NCBI GenBank assembly: GCA_951406725.2
Contig: OX597817.1
Location: 131,502,001 to 131,566,000, forward strand
DNA length: 64,000 nucleotides
Direction of reading: 5' to 3'
Source of the DNA: Octopus vulgaris
Taxonomy: Eukaryota
Position numbers and translations under genes: made by a program. Below the pieces are notes generated by a model. That model was given only the letters and a program-made list of their open reading frames with translations, did no database searches and was not told where the DNA came from. This document shows, piece by piece, positions 34,139 to 35,112 of the stretch; within the stretch, counting starts at the first letter, position 1; the number at the start of each line of letters is the position of its first letter.

Positions 34139-35112
34139 CTTTATAATTAGGGTTCAGCAACAATTTGCTTCACCACATACCGAAGTTTAGAAATAGCGGT
34201 CAAAAGATCTTAGCTATTCCTTCTACTTTAAAGGGGGTTCCCAGAAAAACCAAAGCACTTGAAAACAAACCACGCTGGCAAAAGGGAAAAAACGACGAAA
34301 ATCATTCTATATTAGGTTACCCACGGACGTACGTTACATATTAAATTTGTAGGCACTGGAAAATATCTCTTCACCTAACGGTATCAGAGAGATCATATTC
34401 CGTGCTAGTGCCGCCAAATTCAAAAAACGAAAGAGAATAAGTGATCCTCCCTCGCCCACCAGCGTGTTGCCAATTAAGATGCTACAGTGAGAAACTGTAG
34501 TTTTTTTTATCTTGGAAAAAATTCCATTATCAATAATAACAAAGGGTGAAATCAATTAATTAAGAAGTAATCAGTAATTTCACCAAGAAGAATTCGGCAT
34601 GAAAAGGACCATTTCATAGTAAGCTTAAGTAATACTTCGTTTTTTGAATTTGGCGGCACTAGTACGGAATATGATCTCTCTGATACCGTTAGGTGAAAAG
34701 ATATTTTCCAGTGCCTTCAAATTTAATATGTAATAATTTATAATTGAGGAATCCCACGCTGAAGAACCGAAAATAGTCGGGTAAGGTATAATTATTTATT
34801 AGTTATGCTTTATACTGATTTAATTCCGAAACGTACGTCCGTGGGTAACCTAATATAGAATTATTTTCGTCGTTTTTTCCCTTTTGCCTGCGTGGTTTGT
34901 TTTCAAGTGCTTTGGTTTTTCTGAAGGAATAGCTAAGATTTTTTTACTGCTTTTTCTAAACTTCGGTATGTAGTGAAGAAAATCGTTGCTGAACCCTAAT
35001 TATAAAGTATTACTTAAGCTTACCATGAAATGGTCCTTTTCATGCCGAATTCTACCTGCTGAAATTACTGATTACTTCTTAATTAATTAATTTCGCCCTT
35101 TGTTATTATTAT
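34137..35112. mobile_element. Composite inverted-repeat element (family H4, Penelope pLTR/retrozyme-like) between (TA)n tracts
   Basis: Blocks A (34137-34335), B (34334-34430) and C (~34533-34637) recur inverted as B' (34636-34733), A' (34830-35009) and C' (35006-35110). Confidence 0.8.
34753..34845 (+). ncRNA. Type I hammerhead ribozyme with extended stem II
   Basis: CCCACG-CUGAAGA-[62-nt hairpin]-GAAA-CGUACG-UC-CGUGGG: 6-bp stem I, palindromic stem III, GUC site with predicted cleavage after 34839. Confidence 0.82.

Follow-up and report, generated by a model that had tools for sequence, protein, structure and literature searches.

The 64,000-nt stretch of Octopus vulgaris DNA analysed here (the window) carries at 34136-35124 a hammerhead-bearing repeat that we read, at a probability of roughly 0.7, as a decayed retrozyme copy: the predicted hammerhead of this family would cut its RNA into single units, which would be circularised and which a Penelope-type enzyme would insert at (TA)n, and the copy in the window would itself probably cut poorly. 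On sequence criteria the family is a non-LTR retrozyme with Penelope-type insertions, its units being tandem, non-coding and low in GC, with one type I hammerhead each and no LTR. A preliminary description of the window had focused on the hammerhead and overlooked the repeat element that surrounds it.

Hammerhead motif and predicted fold

Every part listed in that description, namely stem I, the CUGAAGA and GAAA boxes, the palindrome and the GUC triplet, was recovered in place (Table 1), and the window copy shows the type I order with the CUGANGA / GAAA / UH core and three stems. Folding of both strands gave -26.1 kcal/mol and z -3.31 for the plus-strand RNA, with 0 of 200 shuffles equalling its minimum-energy fold, whereas the reverse strand folded at chance level (z +0.12). 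For the 62-nt insert alone, z was -4.39 as plus RNA vs -0.03 as minus RNA and -0.56 / 0.00 when folded as DNA, which bears out the proposal that the fold works as RNA of this strand and not as a DNA palindrome. The helix AGUCGG/CUGAUU and the 14-bp helix with its UUUAU loop are both present in the minimum-energy fold, where the same tally of six G-U among 20 stem II pairs was obtained. The 14-bp helix is indeed contiguous in the window copy, however, this relies on G34802, a base peculiar to this copy (its 32 aligned relatives all have T, and that pair forms in 3 of 74 family rows), which makes the helix unbroken and provides one of the six G-U pairs.

Table 1. Positions of the hammerhead, its parts and the surrounding insertion in the window
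Feature	Position	Strand	Basis or remark
Type I hammerhead	34753..34845	+	Motif location, fold, Rfam; predicted cut after C34839
Stem I strands CCCACG / CGUGGG	34753-58 / 34840-45	+	6 bp
Core box CUGAAGA	34759-65	+	Read from sequence
62-nt insert (long stem II)	34766-827	+	Read from sequence
Core box GAAA	34828-31	+	Read from sequence
Stem III, self-complementary ACGUACGU	34831..34838	+	Read from sequence
C17 (cut-site nucleotide)	34839	+	Read from sequence
Extended stem I	34747..34851	+	Contains internal loop 1 (U34752; U34846 as U1.7), which AGG/CCU closes
10.1 position and 2-nt bulge	34766..34768	+	A in window copy, G in relatives
Stem II as a whole	34769..34827	+	Fold and alignment of copies
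Stem II 3x3 internal loop, next to base helix GAA/UUC	34772-74 / 34821-23	+	A34823 is the predicted loop-2 contact
Stem II helix above internal loop	34775-80 / 34815-20	+	Fold
Stem II upper helix	34781-94 / 34800-13	+	Fold
Two-armed insertion of ~600-bp hammerhead repeat (retrozyme), ~990 bp	34136..35124	.	Self-comparison and 29 other loci
(AT)84 tract, left flank	33970-34138	.	Repeat scan
Left arm, ~one full turn of the unit, fixed 3' end E1	34136..34637	-	Comparison of loci
Right arm, 5'-truncated, whole hammerhead, fixed 3' end E2 (assigned by eye)	34636..35124	+	Comparison of loci

The Rfam model Hammerhead_1 (RF00163) spans exactly 34753-34845 with 19.8 bits vs a gathering score of 34, and no family in the Rfam scan of this interval reaches its gathering score; the low score can be ascribed to the 62-nt insert, which is scored as a gap. 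Long-stem hammerhead families are likely undercounted, since they fall below the Rfam threshold and outside short-loop descriptors. The stem III palindrome takes the form ACGUACGU in 46 of 74 rows, ACGCGCGU in 16 and ACGUGCGU in 9, and cofolding of two copies yields a double hammerhead, its stem III 8 bp long, at -72.6 vs 2 x -30.3 kcal/mol. A nested minimal core, CUGAAGA-GNC-GAAA-AUAGUC, was rejected, as neither stem I nor the 15.2-16.2 pair forms.

A window copy that probably cuts poorly

The preliminary description considered this hammerhead the best candidate for an active ribozyme, which does not hold for the window copy in view of its A10.1.C11.1, the bulge of its lineage and the age of the insertion. 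The 'imperfect base' of stem II that it mentioned proves to be the loss of the G10.1-C11.1 pair, replaced here by A10.1.C11.1, and the window copy, having lost G10.1, would probably cut poorly. G occupies 10.1 in 67 of 74 family rows, and of the 51 exact matches of the bulged lineage, to which the window copy belongs, 46 have G at 10.1, 4 have A (window copy included) and 1 has C. The 2-nt bulge after 10.1 in this lineage turns 10.1-11.1 into a lone pair, which, under nearest-neighbour folding, forms with a probability of less than 0.01 in each of 5 bulged copies vs 0.73-0.99 in each of 6 unbulged ones. This pair is described as the most conserved after 15.1-16.1, U-U being the best-tolerated mismatch (PMC3088659). 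Residual activity of the window copy is nevertheless conceivable, since hammerheads whose helix II is absent or a single pair, for which rates of 0.01-0.001 per minute are given, cut in vivo (PMC13725137). Treating A34766 as the extra base after position 9 known from Penelope-type minimal hammerheads brought no rescue, the next pair being C.C. At 34767-34779, the bulge C is nearly fixed in the bulged lineage and permits a competing hairpin, CCGA/UCGG.

The insertion itself consists of two diverging arms flanked by (TA)n tracts on both sides, the right one a short TA run. About 96 nt covering the 5' part of the hammerhead are missing from the left arm, which retains stem III, the GUC and the 3' stem I strand at 34320-34335; the deletion junction was found once genome-wide, at this locus, and a spreading ribozyme-less lineage was rejected. 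The right arm shows a 19-nt gap against the left arm, and its E2 end was assigned by eye, the script having left it unclassified. Against their relatives, the arms show 12 differences in 489 positions and 14 in 502, and the two arms disagree at 18 of 385, which indicates that the insertion is old and decaying; this decay after insertion, the last step of the proposed history, is seen in the sequence. Two consecutive units with complete hammerheads, which mark an 'active' retrozyme in bioRxiv 10.64898/2026.07.22.740005, occur elsewhere, e.g. at locus L064; the window insertion holds one complete hammerhead only, and two consecutive complete units are absent. No ORF with RT plus GIY-YIG, as it lies between the pseudo-LTRs of an autonomous Penelope-like element, was found at the window locus. 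The family is worth testing, however, the window copy would be the wrong first choice for an assay.

The repeat family in the genome

In the 2.8 Gb searched (227 contigs), intact cores with a 52-72 nt stem II occur at least 886 times, vs 0 for a reversed control pattern. The same core with a 1-30 nt insert has a single match, which is unrelated to the unit, and a short-stem version of the family was rejected. The repeat unit has a period of 582-602 bp and a GC of 35-36%, and is arranged head-to-tail in up to 4.3 units that are 99.4-99.8% identical inside one array; no ORF was found between tandem units in the arrays examined. The starting point of the proposed mechanism, a unit that occurs head-to-tail in many copies, lacks an ORF and has one type I hammerhead, is thus seen in the genome. 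The family comprises about four lineages, 72-84% alike across the hammerhead. Five natural units folded as circles gave z -4.4 to -7.4, and one antisense unit likewise folds strongly (z -5.4). Contigs of runs that we guessed to be RNA cover parts of a young unit, circle and tandem being indistinguishable in them, and do not cover the bulged-lineage hammerhead. Among the records that contain the unit, none was listed as RNA; we count neither finding in favour of expression or against it.

A widely spaced triple at C1:216 Mb was found to be a local triplication and was rejected as a case of a Penelope ORF between repeats. A 570-bp tandem repeat at L071 2807-3810, 59-67% like the unit and mainly so in the 3' module, is a more distant relative. 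Unrelated hammerheads with a long stem II occur at L097 about 130-560 (59-nt insert) and L092 about 620-700 (39-nt insert), the former in a two-armed repeat next to (TA)n, so that a long stem II recurs in this genome.

Conservation of the long stem II and predicted loop contacts

Pairs were counted on the window-copy structure in an alignment of 74 distinct rows from 80 loci, 50 of which were retrieved with a pattern fixing the core. The proposed pairing is kept across genome copies, with 87.7% of cells paired over the 74 rows. Double-change cells number 148, vs 55.6 in shuffled and at most 28 in slid controls, however, the number of pairs showing double change is not in excess (13 vs 11.4 shuffled; 108 of 500 shuffles), and as the shuffle control ignores kinship and the rows derive from only about four lineages, these counts represent few independent covariation events. 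Compensatory pairs are seen in stem I (C-G in 58 rows and U-A in 12; U-A in 51 and C-G in 18), in outer stem I (A-U 41, G-C 29), at the stem II base (G-C 46, A-U 25), in the helix above the internal loop (A-U 57, G-C 15; C-G 45, U-A 17) and at the palindrome centre in stem III (U-A 48, C-G 17). Selection at the RNA level, as originally suggested, is thus upheld for the family, by strand asymmetry and by compensatory changes in stem I, lower stem II and the stem III palindrome. The G-U-rich upper helix, on which the preliminary description had laid stress, is instead the least conserved part of stem II, with 78% of cells paired and changes mainly between G-U and G-C; this low value is in part due to misalignment, as in about 13 rows, those of the 69-71 nt lineage, the upper 3' strand is wrongly placed by MAFFT and the upper-helix counts are lowered.

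These data also bear on whether the repeat could be a DNA-level satellite or fold-back repeat, the hammerhead being a non-functional leftover and the long stem a chance hairpin. Such a view could draw on the sub-threshold Rfam score, the modest pairing of the upper helix and two young copies whose hammerhead region folds no better than shuffles (z -1.4 and -0.7). We regard it as extremely improbable, given that the folding is strand-specific, that all three stems carry compensatory changes and that the copies are dispersed, with fixed 3' ends and variable 5' ends.

Under the retrozyme reading, the long stem II, whose insert spans 55-71 nt family-wide, would act as a normal stem II made of a 4-bp base helix and an internal loop replacing loop 2. 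In the unbulged lineages stem II opens with a 4-bp helix (GGAA/UUCC, GAAA/UUUC, once GAGA/UCUC) followed by an internal loop, and in this loop, 4 bp from the core, the 3' A and a purine before it are each found in 74 of 74 rows. U is present at 1.7 in 72 of 74 rows and before stem I, in loop 1, in 74 of 74. U1.7, the loop A and the loop-1 U all lay outside the search patterns, however, alignment columns agree to about three quarters on average, and the invariance of three single residues is therefore supportive, though short of proof. U1.7, a 3' A in loop 2 and a pyrimidine in loop 1 form the loop-loop motif of most natural hammerheads as described in PMC2632901, and at the level of sequence the residues for a loop 1 - loop 2 contact can be seen. 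The internal loop would dock on internal loop 1, its A meeting U1.7, and the hairpin beyond would be an add-on; in the long arm, an added hairpin has likely opened an otherwise ordinary loop 2, as in CChMVd (-). The natural variants of the family (intact, bulged and A10.1) would allow both the internal loop 2 contact and the role of the extra hairpin to be tested.

Within stem II, 66 of 74 rows retain GGUAAG at 34780-34785 opposite a variable strand. This sequence resembles a 5' splice site; spliced genomic copies beginning at GGUAAG were not found among 70 distinct contexts.

Insertion pattern and Penelope-type elements

Among 84 arms, 77 end at the 3' side in one of two clusters, about 190 and 300 nt past the cut site, and 40 of 88 insertions are two-armed; all 21 with both ends classified combine E1 with E2, the other 19 of the 40 having at least one unclassified end. 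The insertions show a (TA)n target, 5' truncation, an inverted companion and two 3' ends, which together make up a Penelope-type footprint. As the shape of the insertions suggests, a Penelope-type RT/GIY-YIG protein would cut (TA)n and prime cDNA from both DNA ends, and priming at E1 and E2, ~100 nt apart on one template, would yield two diverging 5'-truncated arms. In 35 sampled insertions, 25 insertion-specific variants are common to all overlapping units, 20 of them spanning both arms, alongside 44 single-unit or partial differences; the shared variants imply that both arms were copied from one template sequence, however, a homogeneous source array would explain them no less well than a circle.

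In the same genome, one Penelope-type family has a 781-aa RT/GIY-YIG frame that is open in 16 of the 150 matches scored, the RT match of this frame lying just below the Pfam cut-off. Penelope-type elements here have (TA)n ends, and a second family also shows two 3' ends and inverted companions; by motif, these families carry a Zn-finger-like linker and appear to be of the Neptune/Nematis type. Both have their own hammerheads, with a short stem II and the U3-A8 core variant UUGAUAA. Retrozymes are often found in or beside the same (TA)n tract as a Penelope-type copy (L024/L067, L029, L096, L097), which is consistent with a common target. A comparison with 51 loci that surround Penelope-type 3' ends or GIY-YIG matches revealed no DNA similarity between the unit and Penelope-type elements; the hits obtained were retrozymes inserted nearby, and an autonomous partner recognisable by shared DNA was rejected. 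Since the unit and the sampled Penelope-type families share no DNA, the partner enzyme is only inferred. The two Penelope-type families described above have an upstream ORF (L119 2245-4587, L120, L121; L067 5726-8006).

The unit might, however, be the pseudo-LTR or 3' end of an unfound autonomous Penelope-like element, of which the copies would be truncated remains. Its ends, target and inverted arms are indeed Penelope-like (PMC8557442), known elements are matched by 24 of 57 retrozyme families in Xenopus, and among these 21 of 22 are Penelope-like (bioRxiv 2026.07.22.740005), and the conserved 3' module of the unit has 2,088 genome matches, the first 30 loci of which were inspected. This origin appears quite improbable in the face of pure head-to-tail arrays with no ORF between units and of the 781-aa protein, which has a contiguous match in 0 of 88 insertions (its matches at L024/L067 and L029 are separate neighbouring elements). 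The hammerheads of the observed Penelope-type families are, moreover, of the short-stem U3-A8 kind, and stem II is 7 bp long in the Hydra-1_oBim motif as published (PMC8557442).

Template and cleavage

Arms pass through the cut site in 61 of 84 cases and are longer than one unit in 28 of 84, which points to a template that is either a circle or an uncut multimer. In the retrozyme reading the family RNA would be cut after N17, as a monomer or via the palindromic dimer, and the monomer ligated into a circle. Alternatively, the template would be an uncleaved or partly cleaved linear multimer, the hammerhead being slow or protein-assisted and trimming 5' ends only. Some arms begin at the cut site yet continue across a junction left uncut (L053 898 nt, L059 800 nt, L062 893 nt), which would suit such a template, as would the 51 copies reached by the bulged lineage despite its weak stem II base. 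For an anole Penelope-like element, insertion in vitro was independent of hammerhead cleavage, catalytic mutants having no effect, and cleavage needed protein (PMC11167929); in Xenopus, 8 of 9 retrozyme dimers failed to cleave (bioRxiv 2026.07.22.740005). A linear template would nonetheless need a single-unit bottleneck at some stage to explain variants common to units and both arms, the units fold well as circles, and circles are shown for coral, mussel and axolotl retrozymes (PMC7229834); we consider it fairly unlikely.

For arms starting at the predicted cut, a pattern requiring non-family letters immediately upstream gave 20 matches, from which 2 duplicates of a triplicated insertion and 5 internal deletions (L177, L178, L179, L187, L191) were removed, leaving 13 independent starts among 1,280 passes. 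A control site gave 9 matches and 7-8 arm starts among about 2,088 passes, after one deletion was removed and one ambiguous match counted both ways. The resulting ratio of 2.7-3.0 (p 0.013-0.023) comes from one control site, slightly different patterns and small counts. Arm 5' ends elsewhere are evenly spread. The first 15-25 bases are copied twice in 5 of 13 cut starts vs 0 of 8 controls (p 0.06), and at L189 both arms begin at the cut site. The excess at the cut is a weak, suggestive genomic hint of cleavage in vivo.

According to PMC7229834, some block must keep metazoan retrozyme circles from re-cutting. A doubtful, unlikely proposal is that the hairpin beyond loop 2 would be a control module (e.g. 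a protein or U1 snRNP site at GGUAAG) holding the ribozyme of the circle off, the arm starts at the cut site then being a record of germ-line cleavage; if true, this module would be a candidate for the block that PMC7229834 requires.

Relation to known systems

The octopus unit shares with metazoan non-LTR retrozymes the non-coding tandem unit with one type I hammerhead (PMC7229834; bioRxiv 10.64898/2026.07.22.740005), as well as a low GC, a stem III of two pairs with a palindromic tetraloop, a predicted self-paired circle and co-occurrence with Penelope-like elements (PMC7229834). It differs in length, ~600 nt vs about 170-400 nt in the invertebrates tested in PMC7229834 (the preprint gives a range of 51-972 bp), and in its stem II, a 55-71 nt insert vs a 4-bp helix and short loop (PMC7229834); further, a target-site duplication is not visible in (TA)n. 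With Penelope-like insertions it has in common the (TA)n target, 5' truncation, partial tandems, the inverted 5'-truncated companion and two fixed 3' ends (PMC8557442; PMC11167929), and for a Penelope-like element two internal start sites were seen in vitro (PMC11167929). Unlike these elements, the unit has no ORF and no DNA in common with the autonomous families sampled, and its 3' ends lie about 100 nt apart, vs a tail of 30-40 bp in them (PMC8557442; PMC11167929).

As for the ribozyme, CChMVd (-) likewise has loop 2 as an internal loop within a longer stem II, for the 3' A of which a pair with the 5' U in loop 1 has been proposed, as here; it is, however, a viroid sequence and docks on a hairpin loop 1, whereas the octopus unit has two internal loops and an extension of about 40-55 nt (PMC2632901). 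The Schistosoma mansoni type I hammerhead likewise has a stem I of 6 bp, an internal loop 1 that begins with U and ends in a pyrimidine, and the loop-2 3' A, but its loop 2 is an apical CAAAUA hexaloop (PMC2632901). Penelope-like minimal hammerheads share the palindromic stem III region and possible dimer, and differ in a helix II of 7-8 bp, a helix I of 4-5 bp and an extra base after position 9 (PMC4209133). Neither a retrozyme from a cephalopod nor a stem II of 55-71 nt in an animal type I hammerhead was found in the literature covered, from which subscription journals are mostly absent and whose further supplements could list one; the 'long' helix II of PMC13725137 is 6-8 bp. With hundreds of insertions, the family would offer a test of the proposed retrozyme use of Penelope-like enzymes.

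Other features of the window

A TGF-beta family gene lies on the + strand with coding exons at 2486-3460 and 4784-5017, a PF00688 propeptide, a PF00019 mature domain and a long acidic tract. It ends near 5,000, about 30 kb from the insertion, and a host-gene link was rejected. The intervals 16504-17050, 28400-30800, 36282-36908 and 51083-52000 contain a common SINE-like repeat, tandemly repeated three times with 184 bp, and several LINE fragments that are broken and similar to RT. A lone 5S rRNA match at 18175-18293 (-), scoring 96.9 bits, adjoins a microsatellite and is probably a retroposed copy.
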